Below, one piece after another: positions 2,351 through 23,727 of a stretch of 34,469 nt of DNA. The position numbers and the translations under genes are program-made. The notes below the pieces were generated by a model. It was not told where the DNA came from and did no database searches. It saw only the letters and a list, made by a program, of their open reading frames with translations. The stretch covers positions 1 to 34,469 of the forward strand of contig MFEJ01000019.1 in NCBI GenBank assembly GCA_001779915.1, given 5' to 3'. The DNA comes from Candidatus Doudnabacteria bacterium RIFCSPHIGHO2_01_FULL_45_18 (GTDB lineage: Bacteria; Patescibacteriota; Doudnabacteria; UBA920; O2-02-FULL-48-8). Numbering within the stretch: position 1 is the stretch's first letter; every line of letters begins with the position of its first letter.

Positions 2351-2428
2351 AAGATCCTCCTTATTTGCAATTTTACAGCAGATCCTATATAATATCTACA
2401 CAAGGCCCGGAAAGGCCTTTTAAAAGAG

Positions 2429-2572
2429 CCCAGTAATACAACTTCGATGCTTTTGCCGCAAATGGTTTTTATATATTAGCATCAAAATTATAGATTAAGA
2501 TTGATAATAGTTTTAGTCGTAAATCTTTGGCAAAAGCAGACAAAAACCATTTATCGAAGTTGATATACTGGG
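2429..2572 (+). mobile_element. MITE-like non-autonomous element, copy 1 (144 nt), flanked by AGAG/AGAG direct repeats
   Basis: The termini are CCCAGTAATACAACTTCGAT and ATCGAAGTTGATATACTGGG (17/20 inverted match). The first 28 nt and last ~30 nt are near-identical to the copy at 11402..11548. The flanking 4-mers 2425..2428 and 2573..2576 are both AGAG. Confidence 0.75.
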
Positions 2573-2582
2573 AGAGGCAAAA

Positions 2583-3319: not shown

Positions 3320-3741
3320 TGGCGAAAAAAATTAAGACAATCGTTAAGATCCAACTCCCTGCGGGCAAGGCGGCACCCAGTCAGCAAACCGGAACCGCGC
3401 TTGGTCCCCATGGGATTAATATTGCTTCGTTTATAAAAGAGTTTAACGAACGAACTGCACCGATGGGTGATGTGATCATTCCAGCAGAAATTACGATTTT
3501 CGAAGATCGGACTTTTAGCTTTATCCTAAAAACCCCGCCAGCAGCTATTCTGATTCTGAAAGCCGCGGGGATTGATAAAGGTTCAGGCAATCCTCTGAAG
3601 AATAAAGTTGGGACCATTAGTAAGGCCCAGTTGCGAAAAATTGCGGAACAGAAAATGCCGGACTTAAACGCCAACAGCGTCGAAGCCGCTGAAAAGATCG
3701 TGGCAGGTACAGCTCGGTCCATGGGTGTGGAGATTAAGTAA
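3319..3741 (+). CDS. rplK: 50S ribosomal protein L11
   Basis: The sequence [18 protein letters not shown]..PPxGPALG-like and the TPPAA motif fit L11. Its start overlaps the nusG stop as TAATG. Confidence 0.97.
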
Positions 3742-3871
3742 AAGTTATTAGTTAATAGTTTTTAGTGATTTCTTAATAATTATTTACTAATAAATTCAAT
3801 AGAAATTATAAATTTTAAATTAGTTATTAATCAGTGGGAGCTCATTGAGCGCTCGCACCACAAAGGAATAT

Positions 3872-4546
3872 ATGGGAAAAAGATTAGATGCCGCGCTAAA
3901 AGAAGTTGACGCGATGAAAGTCTACGCGCTTTCCGAAGGGATTGCCTTGGCCAAGAAAACCGCAACCACGAAATTTGTGGGCAATATTGAAGTGCATGTC
4001 CGACTGGGCATTGATCCGAAGAAATCCGACCAGTCAATTCGCTCAACCGTCACCCTGCCGCACGGTACAGGGAAAACCAAACGGATCGCGGCATTCGTCA
4101 CATCCGGCAGAGAGAAGGAAGCCACAGATGCCGGTGCTGTAGTTGTGGGCGGGGAGGAACTGATAAAGAAAATTAAAGAAACCGAACAGTTAAACTTTGA
4201 TATCGCAATTGCCGAGCCAGCCATGATGGCGAAAATGTCAGCGATTGCGAAATTACTCGGTCCGAAAGGTTTGATGCCGAATCCAAAGTCAGGCACTGTC
4301 AGTGCTGACATTGCGAAAACCGTGAAAGAGTTCGCCACTGGCAAAGCGGAATTTAAAAACGACGAATCTGGCAATGTTCACATGATTTTAGGTAAAAGCA
4401 ATTTTCCGGATGAGCAAATCATTGCGAATTTCAAAACATTTTTAGACGCTCTCAATCAATCCAAGCCCGCGGGGCTCAAAAAAGAATATATCCAGGCAAT
4501 CAGCCTTAACGCCACCATGGGCCCCGGGATAAAAGTGAAAGTTTAA
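3872..4546 (+). CDS. rplA: 50S ribosomal protein L1; start placed at the ATG with an AAGGAA RBS, not the TTG at 3845
   Basis: MGKRLDAALKEVD..YALSEGIALAKK..PHGTGK..LGPKGLMPNPKSGTV is typical L1. Confidence 0.94.
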   Translation: MGKRLDAALKEVDAMKVYALSEGIALAKKTATTKFVGNIEVHVRLGIDPKKSDQSIRSTVTLPHGTGKTKRIAAFVTSGREKEATDAGAVVVGGEELIKKIKETEQLNFDIAIAEPAMMAKMSAIAKLLGPKGLMPNPKSGTVSADIAKTVKEFATGKAEFKNDESGNVHMILGKSNFPDEQIIANFKTFLDALNQSKPAGLKKEYIQAISLNATMGPGIKVKV

Positions 4547-4560
4547 AAAGCGATTTGCCA

Positions 4561-4590
4561 ATAGCACCGAATGGTGCTATTTTTGTTTGT
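4561..4590 (+). terminator. Rho-independent terminator after rplA
   Basis: The hairpin is ATAGCACC-gaat-GGTGCTAT, followed by TTTTGTTTGT. Confidence 0.75.
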
Positions 4591-4605
4591 ATTACGGAGG
4601 ACATA

Positions 4606-5139
4606 ATGACCGAAGGAAGGATGTCGCAATTTCGCGCTGCTGTGCAGGTGGCCAACAGGACCTTGGAGGTTTGCCGGCGGAGCGATATCCGTTTCGGATC
4701 TGGCCTTTTCTACTGGCACGATGGTGAAGACAAGCGGATGCAAAATCCTGACCCTTCTTGTCTGCCAACGGAAGAGGGGATCTTCATCGAGATGGTTCTT
4801 GGTAGTCCGCTCCATCCGCGTGCGATCCTCACGCCTTGGGGCGCGTGGTTCTGCTATCGGGGTTCGTTCATCCTTGATACCCGTCATGTTGCTGTTTTGA
4901 AGCTGATGGGGATTGTATTGGAGAAGGCGAGCAACGAGCCTCTGCACAACGAGCAAAATCAGCTCATCTACGAAGTGCGGGAGGTGGACCGACTTGCAAT
5001 GCCACGGGCTCGGCTGATGCCTTTCGATCAAGTCACGTACGGATCGGGAATGGAAGATCGACTCGAAGAATGGTGTACGCTCATGCGTCAGTACATTCCT
5101 AGTTACCGCCCCGACCTCGTGTTCGAAACTAAGAAGTAG
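4606..5139 (+). CDS. Hypothetical protein (177 aa) with no recognised family, in the GC-richer island
   Basis: GGAGG lies 5 nt upstream of the ATG at 4606. The ORF is bracketed by + strand terminators at 4561..4590 and 5145..5180. The competing antisense ORF runs through both terminators and looks compositional. Confidence 0.6.
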   Translation: MTEGRMSQFRAAVQVANRTLEVCRRSDIRFGSGLFYWHDGEDKRMQNPDPSCLPTEEGIFIEMVLGSPLHPRAILTPWGAWFCYRGSFILDTRHVAVLKLMGIVLEKASNEPLHNEQNQLIYEVREVDRLAMPRARLMPFDQVTYGSGMEDRLEEWCTLMRQYIPSYRPDLVFETKK

Positions 5140-5144
5140 AGTTT

Positions 5145-5180
5145 CTGGCAGCCGCACTCGCCCTGCCAGTTTTTTATTTT
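5145..5180 (+). terminator. Rho-independent terminator after the 177-aa gene
   Basis: The stem is CTGGCAG-ccgcactcgcc-CTGCCAG, followed by TTTTTTATTTT. Confidence 0.75.
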
Positions 5181-5224
5181 GTAGACCAATCACTGCCGAT
5201 GGTTCAAGGGTTGTACACTCAAGA

Positions 5225-5238
5225 TGGCCGATCGGCCA
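5225..5238. promoter_or_regulatory. Perfect 14-bp palindrome TGGCCGATCGGCCA, 15 nt upstream of a -35 box; candidate operator
   Basis: The palindrome was read directly. Its position relative to TTGACA at 5254 suggests an operator. Confidence 0.35.
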
Positions 5239-5253
5239 CCATGGAGGTACAAG

Positions 5254-5281
5254 TTGACATTTCTTTAACTGTATATAAAAT
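5254..5281 (+). promoter_or_regulatory. Sigma70-type promoter: TTGACA, 16-nt spacer, TAAAAT
   Basis: TTGACA lies at 5254..5259 and TAAAAT at 5276..5281. It sits in an otherwise non-coding gap. Confidence 0.55.
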
Positions 5282-5287
5282 AGTATT

Positions 5288-5459
5288 ATGTTAGTTACCC
5301 GAAACAAAAGGATTTGGTCGTCATACGCTGAACTCATCCTAGGACACTAGGACACTAGGGCAATTGTTATCTTCATTTTGTAGCTACCCTCTCCCTCTGG
5401 GAGAGGGGCTGGGGGTGAGGGTTACAATTTCAAAAGCTGCCCTAGTGGGCAGTTTTTTT
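5288..5459 (+). ncRNA. Candidate ~170-nt structured RNA, either a leader/attenuator of the NlpC/P60 gene or a stand-alone sRNA
   Basis: A promoter lies upstream and an intrinsic terminator at the 3' end. Inside are tandem octamers TAGGACAC/TAGGACAC/TAGGGCAA and a 9-bp C-rich/G-rich hairpin. No plausible ORF is present. The TSS position is estimated, not observed. Confidence 0.45.
5436..5459 (+). terminator. Rho-independent terminator, 8 nt upstream of the NlpC/P60 RBS
   Basis: The hairpin is (G)CTGCCC-tagt-GGGCAG followed by TTTTTTT. AAGGAGG begins at 5468. Confidence 0.7.
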
Positions 5460-7631: not shown

Positions 7632-8279
7632 ATGGCTTCATTTGAAATTGAAATCAAAAGTCTGCTCGGAATCAAAGACAATGCCGATAAACTGATAAAG
7701 AGACTACAACTAGATCCGTCGTTTCAATCTTTAGGAAGCCACATGCAGTTGAATCACTACTTTATTAATGGCGACCTGCATAAATTGTCTGACAAACTTA
7801 GCTTAAGCTTGGATTCGAGTTTCGGAAAAGCGAAAGATGTTTCTTTAAGAACCAGGCTGGCGGATGACAAAGTTCTGCTCGTGATTAAAGCGACAGTTGA
7901 TGATACGACTTCGAGCAATGGCACGGCCAGAATGGAATTTGAAACGGAAATCGGCTTAACTTTAGAAAAACTTGATCAAGCACTTCTGGACTGTGGGTTT
8001 GAATATCAAGCCAAGTGGTCGCGAGAAAGACAGGACTTTAAATATCAAGGCCTGAATGTAACTGTCGATAAAAACGCGGGCTATGGCTATTTGGCGGAGT
8101 TTGAAAAGGTGATTGATAACCAGTCGCAAGCTGATGCGGTGAAGGGCCAAATTCGGGAAATCATGGCCAACCTGGGGCTTTTGGAACTAAACCAAGATCG
8201 CCTAGCGCGCATGTTTGATTTCTATAACAAAAACTGGCAGGATTATTATGGAACCGAGAAGGTATTTAATATTGAATAG
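7632..8279 (+). CDS. CYTH-domain protein (triphosphate tunnel metalloenzyme, CyaB/ThTPase-like)
   Basis: The N-terminal ExExK signature (FEIEIKS) and a ~215-aa length fit the family. Later acidic strands (MEFETEI, AEFEKV) are consistent. Confidence 0.75.
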   Translation: MASFEIEIKSLLGIKDNADKLIKRLQLDPSFQSLGSHMQLNHYFINGDLHKLSDKLSLSLDSSFGKAKDVSLRTRLADDKVLLVIKATVDDTTSSNGTARMEFETEIGLTLEKLDQALLDCGFEYQAKWSRERQDFKYQGLNVTVDKNAGYGYLAEFEKVIDNQSQADAVKGQIREIMANLGLLELNQDRLARMFDFYNKNWQDYYGTEKVFNIE

Positions 8280-10292: not shown

Positions 10293-11391
10293 ATGGAAGA
10301 ATTATTACGAGAAATTAAAACTTTAAAAGGCCAGTTGCTCGACCTGAAGGAGCATCTTTGACCTCGCCCAGAAGAAACAAAAAATTCTAGAGTTAGAAGA
10401 TGCCATGGCAGACCCGAATTTCTGGTCAGATCAGGGCATGGCAAAATTCAAAGCCAAGCGACTTTCGGAACTCAAAAACCAGGTTGCGGCTTGGTTTGAA
10501 TTTGAGTCAGATTTAGCCGATTTAGAAGAGCTGGCCAGTATGGCGGTCAAAGAGTCGGATAAGGCAATGGATGCTGATTTAAGGGCTAAATTTAGCGTCC
10601 TAAGGGCTGCTTATGAGCAGTTTCGGCTAACGACCTTTTTATCAGCCAAGTATGACAATCATGACGCGATTTTATCCATCCATGCGGGTGCTGGCGGCGT
10701 GGATGCGCAGGACTGGGCCGAGATGCTGCTGCGCATGTATTTAAGATACGCCGAGAAGAAAAATTTTAAAACCATGGTTGTAGACCAGAGCCGCGGCGGT
10801 GAAGCTGGGATCAAAAGCGTGGTCGTGGAAATTATCGGACCATTTGCGTATGGGTATTTTAAAAGTGAGGCCGGTGTGCATCGGTTGGTCCGGCAATCGC
10901 CGTATAATTCTACCCACACCCGCGAAACATCATTTGCCCTGGTTGAGATTCTGCCTGTGATTGAACAAGGTGAATACAAACTTAATCTTGATGAAGTTGA
11001 GATTGAAGCGAAAACTTCACGCGGGCATGGCGGACAATCTGTAAATACCACTTATTCCGCGATTCGGGCCACCCATAAACCCACAGGGCTGACCGTGACG
11101 ATTCAAAATGAAAGATCCCAAACACAAAATAAGGAACAGGCGTTGAAGATTTTAGCCGGCAAACTGGTACAACTGGAAGAGCAGCGCCAGCAAGAAGAAA
11201 AATTGAAGATTCGAGGGGAATTTCACAGCGCGGAGTGGGGGAATCAAATTCGCTCTTATGTGCTGCATCCATATAAATTAGTCAAAGATCATCGCACGGG
11301 ATACGAAACTTCGGACGCGGAAAGCGTCCTGGAAGGCAATTTAGACGAATTTGTAAAAAAATATTTAGAAAAGCATATAAATTTGATATAA
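10293..11391 (+). CDS. prfB: Peptide chain release factor 2 with programmed +1 frameshift: join(10293..10358,10360..11391)
   Basis: Frame 0 reads MEELLREIKTLKGQLLDLKEHL and then reaches CTT TGA C. The +1 frame continues DLAQKKQKILELEDAMADPNFW and carries the SPYNS-type and GGQ (RGHGGQSVN) motifs. Confidence 0.96.
10347..10362 (+). promoter_or_regulatory. RF2 autoregulatory frameshift site: internal SD AAGGAG, 3 nt, then CTT TGA C
   Basis: The sequence AAGGAGCATCTTTGAC was read directly. It matches the canonical prfB recoding signal. Confidence 0.9.
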
Positions 11392-11401
11392 TAGATAATG
11401 A

Positions 11402-11548
11402 CCCAGTAATACAACTTCGATGCTTTTGCTTTTTATGGTTTTTGAAACAAGTAACTTTAATCGCTATGATTTTTGATAATATTAATCTAATGCTTTTACG
11501 GTTCGCAAAAGCGGACTCAAAAACCATTATCGAAGTTGATATACTGGG
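11402..11548 (+). mobile_element. MITE-like non-autonomous element, copy 2 (147 nt), flanked by ATGA/ATGA direct repeats
   Basis: It has the same 20-nt termini as copy 1. The flanking 4-mers 11398..11401 and 11549..11552 are both ATGA, and the right one supplies the ftsE ATG. Confidence 0.75.
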
Positions 11549-12226
11549 ATGATTAAATTCGACCAAGTTACAAAAATCTACGACAACCTCACAGCGCTTA
11601 AAAATGTCTCTTTGGAAGTCCACAAAGGTGAGTTTGTTTCGCTTGTCGGCCAATCCGGCGCCGGCAAATCCACGCTCTTATCATTGATTATTGGCGAAGA
11701 CAAACCAAACAGCGGACGGATTTTTATTGATGACATTGACGTGGCGCAGATCCGCCGTTCAGATATTCCGTATTTGCGCCGCAAAATCGGTGTGGTTTTT
11801 CAAGACATCAGGTTGCTGCCCAAACGCACGGCCTATGAAAATGTCGCCTTTGCTCTAGAAGTGTCAGGTGAGAAAACTCACGTCATAGAAAAAGAAGTGC
11901 CAAAAATTTTAGAAATGGTCGGCTTGGTGGAACGCGCGCATGCTTTCCCGCATGAAATGTCCGGTGGCGAAAAACAACGGGTGGCTATTGCTCGGGCTTT
12001 ATCTCACCGCCCAGTTTTGCTTTTGGCGGACGAACCGACTGGTAATCTGGATGCGATTAACGCGGCGGACATCATTGATCTCTTGATAAAAATCAACAAA
12101 GCCGGGACTACGGTAATTTTAGCCACACATGCCAAGGAACTCGTTAACAGTGTCAAGAAAAGAGTCGTGACGATTGAGAAGGGTCAGGTTATTTACGATC
12201 AACAAAAAGGAAAGTACATGCTATGA
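11549..12226 (+). CDS. ftsE: Cell division ATP-binding protein FtsE
   Basis: It has Walker A GQSGAGKST, the ABC signature MSGGEKQR and Walker B LLLADEPT. ftsX follows it. Confidence 0.92.
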   Translation: MIKFDQVTKIYDNLTALKNVSLEVHKGEFVSLVGQSGAGKSTLLSLIIGEDKPNSGRIFIDDIDVAQIRRSDIPYLRRKIGVVFQDIRLLPKRTAYENVAFALEVSGEKTHVIEKEVPKILEMVGLVERAHAFPHEMSGGEKQRVAIARALSHRPVLLLADEPTGNLDAINAADIIDLLIKINKAGTTVILATHAKELVNSVKKRVVTIEKGQVIYDQQKGKYML

Positions 12227-21424: not shown

Positions 21425-22903
21425 TCAGATTTTGTAAAGGTTTGCTACGGCAGAATTAATCCGTTTTAGAATAATTTCTCGGCCATTTGGTAAAACCAGG
21501 AAAGCTTTCATAATTTCGAAAGGCCCCGGAGATGCCTCAACGCCAGTGAGCGCGACTCTTAGGGGCCAGAGCACTTCCCCGGTTTTCATCTCGTTGTCAC
21601 TAATAAATTTTTTTATATTGTCTTCTGTCGGTTTGGTTGTTTTCAAAAGTTCCAAAAGTTTTTCCAGATTCTGAATGATGATTTGCTTATCTGATTTTTT
21701 CCATATCAAGAGTTTGGCATCATAGGTTGGATCTTTGAAAAAATACATGACCCTCTCCCCTATTTCGGATAGTTTACGTAGCCGATCTTTCTCTAAAGCC
21801 AAAATTTCACTAACGAATTCAGTTGGATACATGCTGACTGGAATCTCGGCCTTAACTAGGTATGGCAAAGTTTTGGCAAAGAGCTCTTCGGGCTTCATTT
21901 TTCTGATATAGACGCTATTAAACCAGTCAAGTTTATCCAAATCAAACACCGCGCCGGCTTTGTTGACTTTTTCAAGCGAGAATTGCTCAATCAAATCTAG
22001 TAAGGAAAAAATTTCATCCTTGGTTTTCGGATTCCAGCCAAGCAGGGCGATGAAATTCAGCAACGCGTCCGGCAAGTAACCCTGCTCTAATAAATCCCTG
22101 ACAGCGACATCACCCTCCCGTTTGGAAAGTTTTTTGCGAGTTTTGGAAAGCAGGAGCGGTAAGTGAGCAAATTGCGGTGATTCCCAGCCAAACGCGGAGT
22201 AGAGCAAAATATGCTTCGGAGTGGACGGAATCCACTCATCGCCCCGGATCACATGAGTAATTTGCATCAGGTGGTCATCCACAACACTGGCTAAATGATA
22301 AGTCGGGAAGCCGTCTGATTTAAGTAAAACCTGATCATCCACTTCATTACTTGAAATTTTAATTTCACCATGCACCACATCGGTAAATCGAATTGTTTGA
22401 TCGGAGGGAACATTGAGTCTAACCACATGCGACTCGCCGGCGCGTAGTTTTGCCTCAATTTCTGGGCCAGATAAAGTCAAACACTGTTTATCGTATTTGG
22501 GCGGTAATTTTTGAGCTTCCTGATTTTTGCGCAGTTCTTCAAGTCGCGCGGGATTACAGAAACAGTAATACGCGGCCTTTTTTTCAATCAGTTCTTGTGC
22601 GTGCTTTTTATAGATATCTAACCGTTGGGATTGGGAATATGGACCAAAACCACCGCGCGACTGGGTCCCATCTTGCCAGTAGGGTCCTTCGTCCGCGTTT
22701 AGCTTGAAATCATTGAATGTCTGTAAAATATTTTCAAGTGATCCGGGTACAATCCGCGCCTGATCCGTGTCCTCGATTCGTAGGATGTACTTGCCCTGTT
22801 TTTTACGCGCAAACAAAAAATTATAAAGCGCCGTGCGCAATCCCCCGACATGCAAAAATCCCGTCGGACTGGGAGCATATCTAACTCTGACTTCTTTACT
22901 CAT
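21425..22903 (-). CDS. gltX: Glutamyl-tRNA synthetase
   Basis: RVRYAPSPTGFLHVGGLRTAL carries the HIGH-type motif and KLSKR the KMSKS-type motif. Confidence 0.96.
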   Translation of the reverse strand: MSKEVRVRYAPSPTGFLHVGGLRTALYNFLFARKKQGKYILRIEDTDQARIVPGSLENILQTFNDFKLNADEGPYWQDGTQSRGGFGPYSQSQRLDIYKKHAQELIEKKAAYYCFCNPARLEELRKNQEAQKLPPKYDKQCLTLSGPEIEAKLRAGESHVVRLNVPSDQTIRFTDVVHGEIKISSNEVDDQVLLKSDGFPTYHLASVVDDHLMQITHVIRGDEWIPSTPKHILLYSAFGWESPQFAHLPLLLSKTRKKLSKREGDVAVRDLLEQGYLPDALLNFIALLGWNPKTKDEIFSLLDLIEQFSLEKVNKAGAVFDLDKLDWFNSVYIRKMKPEELFAKTLPYLVKAEIPVSMYPTEFVSEILALEKDRLRKLSEIGERVMYFFKDPTYDAKLLIWKKSDKQIIIQNLEKLLELLKTTKPTEDNIKKFISDNEMKTGEVLWPLRVALTGVEASPGPFEIMKAFLVLPNGREIILKRINSAVANLYKI

Positions 22904-22926
22904 ATCTGATTACTATTTACTAATTA

Positions 22927-23727
22927 CTACTTAATAATTTTATATTTATAAATTTTCCAAATAAATACCGGAACCGCATTCCAGATCCGCTTAATTCTCC
23001 AAGGCTGGGTGATCAGGCGCCAAAGCCATTCTAGGCCCATCTGATGCATGAAATCGGGTCGTACAGCCCGCTTTCCAGCGAGATAGTCAAATGTACCACC
23101 TAGACCAATCGCGAGTTTAACGTCCAGTTTTGAGAGGTTTTCTGCAATCCACCGCTCTTGATGCGGCGGCGAATGGGCTATGATTAGTATATCAGAATTA
23201 CTTTCTGAAATCTCTTTTATTATCTGATTATCAAATGGGCGTCCTGATAACGCTAAATTTATTTTTACGCTAGGATAAAGTTTTTTTAATTCGTAGGCAG
23301 CCTGTGCCGCGACATTATCTTGGCCACCAACAAAGGCCAGAGAATAATTATTGTCAGCTGCAAGTTTTGCTAAATCATACGCGAGACGATTGCCTGGAAT
23401 TTGCTCCCGAATGACAGAACGAACGTAAGTTGGATTAAAAATAATTGCTGCGCCAGTGTAGATAATTTGCCAAACACTCGCTAACCAATTTCCCTTTAAT
23501 GATAAAAACTTTGCAGCCCAAAGAATGCCAATACCATCAGGTAAAGCCAGGCTGGACTTATTGAGCACTTGGAGATACTCTTTATCCTGAAGAGCAAAAA
23601 TTATCTGCTCCGAATATGGTGTCACAATATAGTGCGGTGAATCAGATTGGACAAAATTGTCTATCTGATCCAATGCCTCCCGTTTCGTAATATTGTCAAT
23701 CAAAACACCCGCGATATCTACTTTCAT
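22927..23727 (-). CDS. WecB/TagA/CpsF family glycosyltransferase
   Basis: The motifs LPDGIGILWAAKF, GGTFDYLAGK and GLEWLWRL..QPWR are characteristic of the family. Confidence 0.87.
   Translation of the reverse strand: MKVDIAGVLIDNITKREALDQIDNFVQSDSPHYIVTPYSEQIIFALQDKEYLQVLNKSSLALPDGIGILWAAKFLSLKGNWLASVWQIIYTGAAIIFNPTYVRSVIREQIPGNRLAYDLAKLAADNNYSLAFVGGQDNVAAQAAYELKKLYPSVKINLALSGRPFDNQIIKEISESNSDILIIAHSPPHQERWIAENLSKLDVKLAIGLGGTFDYLAGKRAVRPDFMHQMGLEWLWRLITQPWRIKRIWNAVPVFIWKIYKYKIIK

Follow-up and report, generated by a model that had tools for sequence, protein, structure and literature searches.

Two repeats in a contig of Candidatus Doudnabacteria bacterium RIFCSPHIGHO2_01_FULL_45_18 prove to be true copies, without coding capacity, of a very small mobile element from the ultra-small CPR bacteria. 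They lie directly upstream of secE and ftsE in contig MFEJ01000019.1, whose whole 34,469 nt (hereafter the window) were analysed. The data presented below demonstrate that the element is mobile, that its ends are common to elements carrying a nuclease gene, that its target sites follow a pattern, and that its internal pairing is conserved. We consider it likely that the window repeats are non-autonomous copies of a family of tiny Patescibacteria elements with coding relatives that encode a GIY-YIG nuclease.

The copies occupy positions 2429–2572 (copy 1, 144 nt) and 11402–11548 (copy 2, 147 nt), both on the plus strand, and are the only matches to the family covariance model in the window (127.9 and 140.3 bits, respectively). 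Alignment bore out the initial annotation, which had placed two copies at these positions in the same orientation, with the first 28 nt identical and the last ~30 nt differing by one indel. The 20-bp inverted ends that it described are also real. They read CCCAGTA-ATA-CAACTTCGAT and ATCGAAGTTG-ATA-TACTGGG; 17 of their 20 positions are complementary, and the other three form a central ATA/ATA mismatch. In copy 1, the left end (CCCAGTAATACAACTTCGAT, 2429–2448, plus strand) and the right end (ATCGAAGTTGATATACTGGG, 2553–2572, plus strand) are invariant across family copies; in copy 2, the end pattern is matched at 11402–11421 and 11529–11548 (plus strand). Its degenerate form occurs four times in the window, and none was expected from 100 shuffles. 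Neither end is complementary to itself; pairing takes place between the left and right ends, across the whole element. Throughout the family, the ends read CCCAGTA-ATA-CAACTT.. and ..AAGTTG-ATA-TACTGGG, the 3-nt mismatch gives the element a fixed polarity, and target duplications measure 3–4 bp, rarely 5 bp.

Each window copy is flanked by its own 4-mer, as had been reported: AGAG at 2425–2428 and 2573–2576 for copy 1, and ATGA at 11398–11401 and 11549–11552 for copy 2. The target of copy 1 is inside the ribosome-binding site of secE; the right AGAG together with the next G forms AGAGG, 5 nt before the secE ATG (2583). Copy 2 is inserted at the ATGA start of ftsE just past a TATAAT box, and its right ATGA is the start codon of ftsE (11549–12226). 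The left ATGA opens a mini-ORF, ATG ACC CAG TAA (11398–11409). A host promoter-like site, TTTAGA-17-(TG)TATAAT (11364–11392, plus strand), ends 5 nt before this left ATGA, so that ftsE was probably leaderless before the insertion. Another such site, TTGCAA-17-TATAAT (2365–2393, plus strand), lies upstream of copy 1 and secE. The promoter-like site TTGAAA-17-TATGAT inside copy 2 (11442–11470, plus strand) points at ftsE and is a subfamily feature only; an outward promoter was rejected as a family feature, since no more than about 17 of 84 copies have one at this position. The statement that both copies precede secE and ftsE in the same orientation holds, and position and orientation before genes prove to be a family-wide rule. 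The window encodes no transposase, and no transposase domain was detected in it, in agreement with the view that the copies are non-autonomous.

Several other features of the window were recorded. A GC hairpin followed by TTTT (ggcccggaaaggcc tttt) lies just upstream of secE at 2407–2424 and is kept in a relative (L055:2969-2986); it may serve as a terminator or in regulation and is independent of the element. Two public contigs of the same strain (L052 and L053, positions 1–24) start 24 nt before the ftsE ATG, inside copy 2, indicating that the element breaks short-read assemblies. AT-rich repeats (TTACTAAT-like) with 14-nt spacing occupy two intergenic regions (3738–3796 and 22896–22954), one of them between rplK and rplA. 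Long ORFs overlap on opposite strands at 4543–5337 (minus) and 4555–5139 (plus); the minus-strand ORF has no Pfam match, and only the plus-strand ORF is called in the gene table of the same-strain contig L049.

The cores of the two copies had been described as diverged, with one sequence clearly shared. Divergence is not the whole picture: the core keeps two complementary box pairs. In copy 1, box A (GCTTTTGCCG, 2449–2458) pairs with box A' (TGGCAAAAGC, 2528–2537), and box B (AAATGGTTTTT, 2460–2470) pairs with box B' (AAAAACCATTT, 2542–2552), with covariation seen in the latter pair. The corresponding boxes in copy 2 are A (GCTTTTGC, 11422–11429) with A' (GCAAAAGC, 11505–11512) and B (ATGGTTTTTGA, 11435–11445) with B' (TCAAAAACCAT, 11517–11527), all on the plus strand in both copies. 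The conserved core pairs GCTTTTGC/GCAAAAGC and ATGGTTTTT/AAAAACCAT thus stand in a non-nested order, and Doudnabacteria-type copies share helices A:A' (GCTTTTGC/GCAAAAGC) and B:B' (AATGGTTTTTGA/TCAAAAACCATT). The order A-B...A'-B' implies either a pseudoknot or two mutually exclusive alternatives. Wolfebacteria copies have the same helix topology with different sequences, and other subfamilies combine the same ends with quite different interiors, often with a GC-rich hairpin right after the left end.

Covariation was assessed in a model-based alignment of 40 distinct copies. The end helices are invariant across this alignment, and helix B:B' shows changes on both sides in 10 of its 12 pairs. 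The pseudoknotted helix A:A', to which the alignment was not fitted, is 95% paired, and cognate halves out-paired non-cognate halves in 2000 of 2000 permutations. The invariant end sequence suggests a protein-recognition site, and the conserved pairing, which is independent of sequence, suggests a folded single strand. Both window copies are predicted to form long hairpins, with z scores of −4.4 as RNA and −6.7 as single-stranded DNA for copy 1 and of −5.9 and −6.2 for copy 2; single-stranded DNA folding of either strand of both copies gave z scores of −5.8 to −7.2. At the gathering score, the single Rfam match in the window is a tRNA elsewhere, and a permissive Rfam scan of the element returned no match with an E value under 1.

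A scan for exact ends in one genome per prokaryotic species yielded 48 loci, nearly all in Candidatus Doudnabacteria with others in Wolfebacteria, Saccharibacteria, Azambacteria, and unclassified Patescibacteria; a few are chance matches in coding sequence of unrelated MAGs. Metagenomes added at least 116 further loci. Genomes and metagenomes together provided at least 152 elements paired end-to-end, mostly of 120–150 nt, and the further copies (at least 150) are almost all in Candidatus Doudnabacteria and other Patescibacteria. The genome-wide search proposed with the initial annotation therefore returned more than 150 additional copies; the best-sampled Doudnabacteria MAGs have roughly 5–9 exact-end copies each in the scan of genome contigs. 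A flanking direct repeat of at least 3 nt was present in 37 of 42 copies in a first set, compared with a mean of 7 and a maximum of 14 for randomly re-paired flanks. Among 84 distinct copies, 74 have a 3–5 bp duplication (4 bp in 59, 3 bp in 13, and 5 bp in 2). More than 20 different sequences are duplicated in this set, most commonly TATG (15), ATGA (13), TTGA (13), and TCAA (7). Flanking repeats are thus a property of the further copies as well.

Homologues of FtsE place the window in a Doudnabacteria genome. Empty sites were found for both window positions in the related Doudnabacteria loci L055 and L056, a comparison that had been suggested with the initial annotation. The element is absent from the site upstream of secE in L055, which is orthologous to the AGAG site of copy 1. 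The spacer between prfB and ftsE, 157 nt long in the window, measures just 27 nt in L056 and 3 nt in L055, and the relatives have a single ATGA within the empty site ...ATGAtc(a/c)aattcgac; in L056, TATAAT lies 8 nt before this ATGA. Nested insertions also exist among family copies. The copies range from 105 to 150 nt, and reading frames entering the non-coding element stop early. A small size (under about 600 bp) without coding sequence, inverted ends, varied duplications, dispersed copies, and empty sites are all present, as expected of a MITE, and a longer element with the same ends exists, which encodes a GIY-YIG nuclease rather than a recognised transposase. The element therefore has every structural attribute of a MITE and departs from one only in lacking a classical transposase as its partner. 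The duplications, empty sites, and dispersed copies support the original interpretation as a product of transposition rather than a conserved leader.

The scans also turned up decayed, variant, and misplaced copies. Only the left-end ~20–24 nt remain at L024:4816-4839 (minus strand), with the same situation in L133 and L137, and at L066:3602-3621 (minus strand), in-frame with the start of the host gene (MPSNTTSML...); the ortholog in L044 carries a full element copy. Decayed element ends can thus turn into N-terminal extensions of host proteins. A sibling family with the ends CCCCGTA...TACGGGG is represented at L082:~7882-8070 (also in L115), L130:437-551, and L192:1480-1788. Two of its copies, of 39 nt and ~115 nt, are nested within the right ends of other copies and are both flanked by a TTGA duplication, and its coding copy has the 5-bp duplication TAGGA. 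Three loci with true element copies (L039, L041, and L045) are on contigs of a non-CPR MAG (DATJFX01, labelled Methylomirabilota), and these contigs are probably mis-binned Patescibacteria. Single-end matches at L028, L032, and L036 were rejected as chance 20-mers in coding sequences of non-CPR MAGs, about nine of which are expected. The end pattern had no match in IMG/VR viral contigs, and a BLAST search of copy 2 against plasmids and phages gave only chance AT-rich matches. The initial annotation had not recognised the ends from any described IS family.

Insertion sites are strikingly non-random: the element enters (T)ATG(A) starts in sense orientation, and it also enters TTGAC −35 boxes. 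In 40 of the 84 distinct copies, about half, the element stops 0–1 nt short of a same-strand ORF and its ATG. Duplications of the ATG type are forward in 35 cases and reverse in 2 (p = 1e-8), whereas TTGA and TCAA occur 13 and 7 times, a ratio that differs from that of the ATG type (Fisher p = 0.006). ATGA sites often combine the stop codon of one gene with the start codon of another, or are gene starts 5–8 nt after a TATAAT box; a −10 box is found at 10 of 36 start-codon sites compared with 6% of control positions. At other start-codon sites, the left ATG is preceded by a ribosome-binding site of the GGAG type. TTGA sites are TTGAC(A/G) −35 hexamers, the majority with a −10-like hexamer about 17 nt downstream, and TCAA sites are TTGAC-type −35 hexamers on the opposite strand; copies at −35 boxes are found in either orientation. 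Orientation is fixed at ATG sites but not at −35 sites, and is thus of consequence in those places where the element is transcribed and translated. In every target class, the duplication rebuilds the host signal beside the right end, and the host gene thereby survives. A microhomology model in which the duplication is inherited from the donor was set aside: the concordance of nearest neighbours (26 of 72, with 15 expected) may be inflated by orthologous sites, and the mean identity was not significant.

The coding relatives of the element are only ~310 bp long. It had been proposed to look for a longer element with the same ends and a transposase gene; the longer element exists, and inside it is not a recognised transposase gene but only a gene for a ~95-aa GIY-YIG nuclease. 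The 312-bp element at L156:431-742 has the same ends in the same polarity, a TATG duplication, and a single ORF, and its locus carries one non-coding and one coding copy. Six further coding loci come from different lineages, and their anatomy was confirmed on the DNA (L173:2004-2315, L175:2004-2318, L181:1770-2081, L188:1504-1815, L190:1504-1812, and L192:1480-1788). All seven coding relatives have the family ends and a duplication, which reads TATG in four of them, ATG in another, and TAGGA in L192. The L192 element has compensatory variant ends (CCCCGTA../..TACGGGG), its TAGGA duplication is away from any start codon, and its protein is called from an internal Met; a placement like that of L192 could lie behind other 92–95 aa forms. 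In the 1.3 Mb around more than 150 copies, no end pairs 0.8–4 kb apart were present, and the only additional pairs belonged to small copies lying side by side or nested. The window and the same-strain contigs searched yielded no coding copy, so that mobilisation in trans is a hypothesis for this genome.

The coding form follows the same target rules as the non-coding one. Its layout places host signals so that they express the nuclease, and the start of the host gene follows the nuclease stop. In most close homologues examined, the nuclease gene starts at the duplicated host ATG and reads through the left end. The N-terminal sequence MPSNTT[S/F], found in 82 of the 120 closest homologues, is the translation of ATG plus the left end CCC AGT AAT ACA ACT TC.; the stop codon is the TGA within the right end (GTTGATA), and the C-terminus is ..GS or ..ES in about 87 of the 120 closest proteins. 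In L173, L175, and L181, the host gene is called from a start codon 10–11 nt past the nuclease stop. Among the closest homologues, S at residue 7 goes with C-terminal GS and F with ES, which amounts to base-pair covariation within the ends: the inner ends covary, despite being coding, as CAACTTTCAG/CTGAAAGTTG and CAACTTCCAG/CTGGAAGTTG. Only the closest nuclease clade (at least 65% identity) is bounded by the ends, and distant paralogues at the same loci are without them. The upstream host gene stops at a TAA in the left end of the element (CCCAGTAA) in two cases (L188:939-1511 and L190:1-1511), and in L190 the final few codons of this gene appear to have been lost to the insertion, which took their place. 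Distant small GIY-YIG paralogues without inverted ends were also seen between tRNA-like repeats or beside a tRNA gene (L035:5926-6737, L142:1001-1585, and L146:12848-13060), which suggests tRNA-gene targeting as a second invasion route of the GIY-YIG family.

The protein of the element is a single-domain protein of 93–101 aa with a core of 93 aa, in which PF01541 is the only domain (Pfam GIY-YIG match E = 1e-13 to 1e-17). A word-indexed search found 613 close homologues, and an exhaustive comparison with cluster representatives yielded 733 at E values up to 1e-10. The residues of the catalytic core are invariant. No NCBIfam model is specific to this nuclease. The predicted model has a pLDDT of 85, and the closest solved structure is UPF0213 BH0048 (PDB 1ZG2), followed by Slx1. 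Slx1 cuts branched and hairpin-like DNA and needs Slx4 and a RING domain; its substrate preference fits the recognition of paired ends. Slx1 and UPF0213 are the best structural and sequence matches to the element protein, yet they are cellular proteins with a repair or unknown role and are not bounded by repeats.

We infer that the nuclease moves the elements. The analogy with Slx1 and Ssn suggests that the two ends pair in single-stranded DNA and thereby form the structure recognised by the nuclease. A staggered cut of 3–4 nt in the target followed by host repair would then produce the duplication, and the nuclease may move the non-coding copies in trans. To judge from the sequence, the mRNA would gain a hairpin leader from the element. 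The left ATG would open a short ORF, such as ATG ACC CAG TAA in copy 2, whose translation may unwind the stem, and the host gene would be translated by re-initiation after this short upstream ORF. A more far-reaching proposal, which we advance tentatively and would not quite call probable, is that the elements of ~310 bp are autonomous, the smallest known among transposable elements of that kind, and form a new class. In these elements, the ~95-aa GIY-YIG nuclease, encoded between hairpin-forming ends and translated from a hijacked host start, would be the sole element-encoded function. Aided by host repair, it would bring about insertion at start codons and −35 boxes, with duplications of 3–4 bp, and the window copies would be the MITEs of these elements.

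The GIY-YIG domain is a domain of DNA hydrolysis. To our knowledge, it is not associated with strand transfer, and we know of no mechanism linking such a nuclease to short duplications. A transposase that has not been seen therefore stays a real rival to the nuclease as the moving enzyme, and the nuclease gene could be a passenger in an element moved by another enzyme. In its specific form, this alternative holds that the repeats are classical MITEs moved in trans by an unsampled IS with a DDE transposase, perhaps IS1380-like by the rules for ends and duplications, and that the GIY-YIG gene is cargo of one lineage. Inverted ends with 3–5 bp duplications are a hallmark of DDE transposition, GIY-YIG enzymes are hydrolytic, and the many paralogues without ends in the same genomes indicate that the gene family is itself invasive. 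We nevertheless regard this alternative as unlikely. No end pair at a spacing of 0.8–4 kb occurs in the 1.3 Mb around the copies, the window lacks a transposase, and the ends have no match in the viral, plasmid, and phage collections. Furthermore, the nuclease ORF starts in the left end and stops in the right end in more than 80 distinct proteins, unlike random cargo. The DDE families with 3–5 bp duplications (IS1380, IS5, IS3, and IS701) have a DDE gene between their ends; the 1.3 Mb contain no end pair at the spacing just given, and no transposase domain is present in the window. IS200/IS605 derivatives (PATE) and REPIN/RAYT have no target duplication, a subterminal hairpin at each end, and a fixed target tetranucleotide; they were rejected because duplications are present and variable and the ends pair with each other. 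Integron attC sites have R''/R' core sites (RYYYAAC/GTTRRRY) at their outer ends, lie at the 3' end of cassettes, and have no duplication. The CAAC/GTTG motifs of the element lie inward of a further 7-bp box, its copies are 5' of genes, and duplications are present, and an attC identity was rejected. A tRNA-like or RNase Z substrate, an IS110-type bridge RNA, and a BHB intron were considered together with the attC site, and each failed on the duplications, on motif position, or on the lack of target conservation beyond the duplication.

Two further explanations place the repeats in the service of the host. According to one, they are recruited recognition sites of a site-specific single-strand nuclease, as with NTS and SsnA in Neisseria, which shape recombination or DNA uptake or serve as leaders that modulate expression, and are no longer selfish mobile DNA. 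The conservation by covariation of pairing in the ends and inner helices agrees with this, as does the precedent of a 94-aa Ssn gene flanked by hairpin repeats with hundreds of dispersed copies (PMC11893778). However, the variable duplications, empty sites, and nested insertions are records of real insertion events, decaying remnants exist, and the counts per MAG are low (roughly 5–9 exact-end copies in the best-sampled Doudnabacteria). We consider host recruitment improbable; it and the mobile-element reading are not mutually exclusive. The other explanation is that the secE and ftsE operons have a cis-regulatory leader RNA of vertical descent, riboswitch-like or protein-binding. It could appeal to the fact that both window copies are in sense orientation just upstream of genes, past promoter-like sites, and have stable folds. 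The orthologous secE and ftsE leaders in relatives lack the element, and other copies precede unrelated genes, some of them upstream of −35 boxes in either orientation. No Rfam family was matched. The empty sites and flanking duplications already refute a leader RNA of this kind, and we give it virtually no credence.

The closest described system to the mobile element is that of Ssn with its NTS/SRM repeats. Ssn is a ~94-aa single-domain GIY-YIG nuclease that cuts single-stranded DNA beside a hairpin repeat; its gene is flanked on both sides by the cognate NTS/SRM repeat, and many gene-less copies with a defined polarity are dispersed (Chenal et al. 2025, PMC11893778). Its authors remarked on the resemblance of this layout to an insertion sequence. 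A single-domain GIY-YIG protein of ~94 aa, a repeat-flanked gene, and dispersed gene-less copies are therefore common to both systems. The Ssn repeat is a self-contained ~28-nt hairpin (criterion 20–50 nt), whereas the flanks of the element pair with each other and its gene-less copies are whole elements of 105–150 nt. Duplications, empty sites, an ORF start and stop embedded in the ends, and the targeting of start codons and −35 boxes set the element apart. Target sites and duplications were absent from the Ssn paper (PMC11893778) in a term search, and we saw no account of end-embedded ORFs or start-codon targeting in it. Ssn belongs to CDD family cd10448 and is mostly found in Pseudomonadati, whereas the element family is found in Patescibacteria, and the nearest solved structure to the element protein is that of UPF0213.

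Other small elements share particular features with the family. Correia/NEMIS in Neisseria and RUP in Streptococcus pneumoniae are non-coding MITEs of 100–150 bp with inverted ends and short duplications. They are gene-adjacent, co-transcribed as hairpins, and sometimes carry promoters, and they are linked to DDE enzymes and duplicate TA. The element differs from them in its GIY-YIG partner, its 3–4 bp duplications, its one-orientation insertion at start codons, and its covarying non-nested helices. IS900/IS110-type elements insert in one orientation beside a ribosome-binding site or start codon and exploit host expression signals; the IS110 family consists of kilobase-sized elements with RNA-guided DEDD recombinases and without long inverted ends or typical duplications. 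The element resembles them in its one-orientation insertion into start regions and is unlike them in enzyme, ends, duplications, and size. The T4 seg genes and relatives of I-TevI are small selfish GIY-YIG genes wedged between host genes. Homing copies such a gene into homologous alleles by repair and does not involve inverted ends, duplications, or non-coding derivatives elsewhere. A small selfish GIY-YIG gene is thus common to these and to the element, and inverted ends, duplications, and non-coding copies are found only in the element. In our literature search, we found no paper on MITEs of CPR bacteria or on GIY-YIG elements with inverted ends and duplications. Nor did the search turn up an account of this type of element in CPR bacteria, or of a tiny GIY-YIG-only element combined with start-codon insertion.

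CPR bacteria have genomes of about 1 Mb with almost no spare DNA. The element can persist in these compact genomes by landing where its own duplication rebuilds a start codon, ribosome-binding site, or −35 box, and it has its gene expressed from a borrowed host start codon. The insertions change the 5' ends of essential operons, e.g., secE-nusG and ftsEX. The element also misleads gene callers, which annotate 101-aa proteins whose first eight residues come from the element end. If the nuclease is the mobilising enzyme, it would represent a new catalytic class in prokaryotic transposition, and the element would provide a mechanistic context for Ssn nucleases and their repeats.
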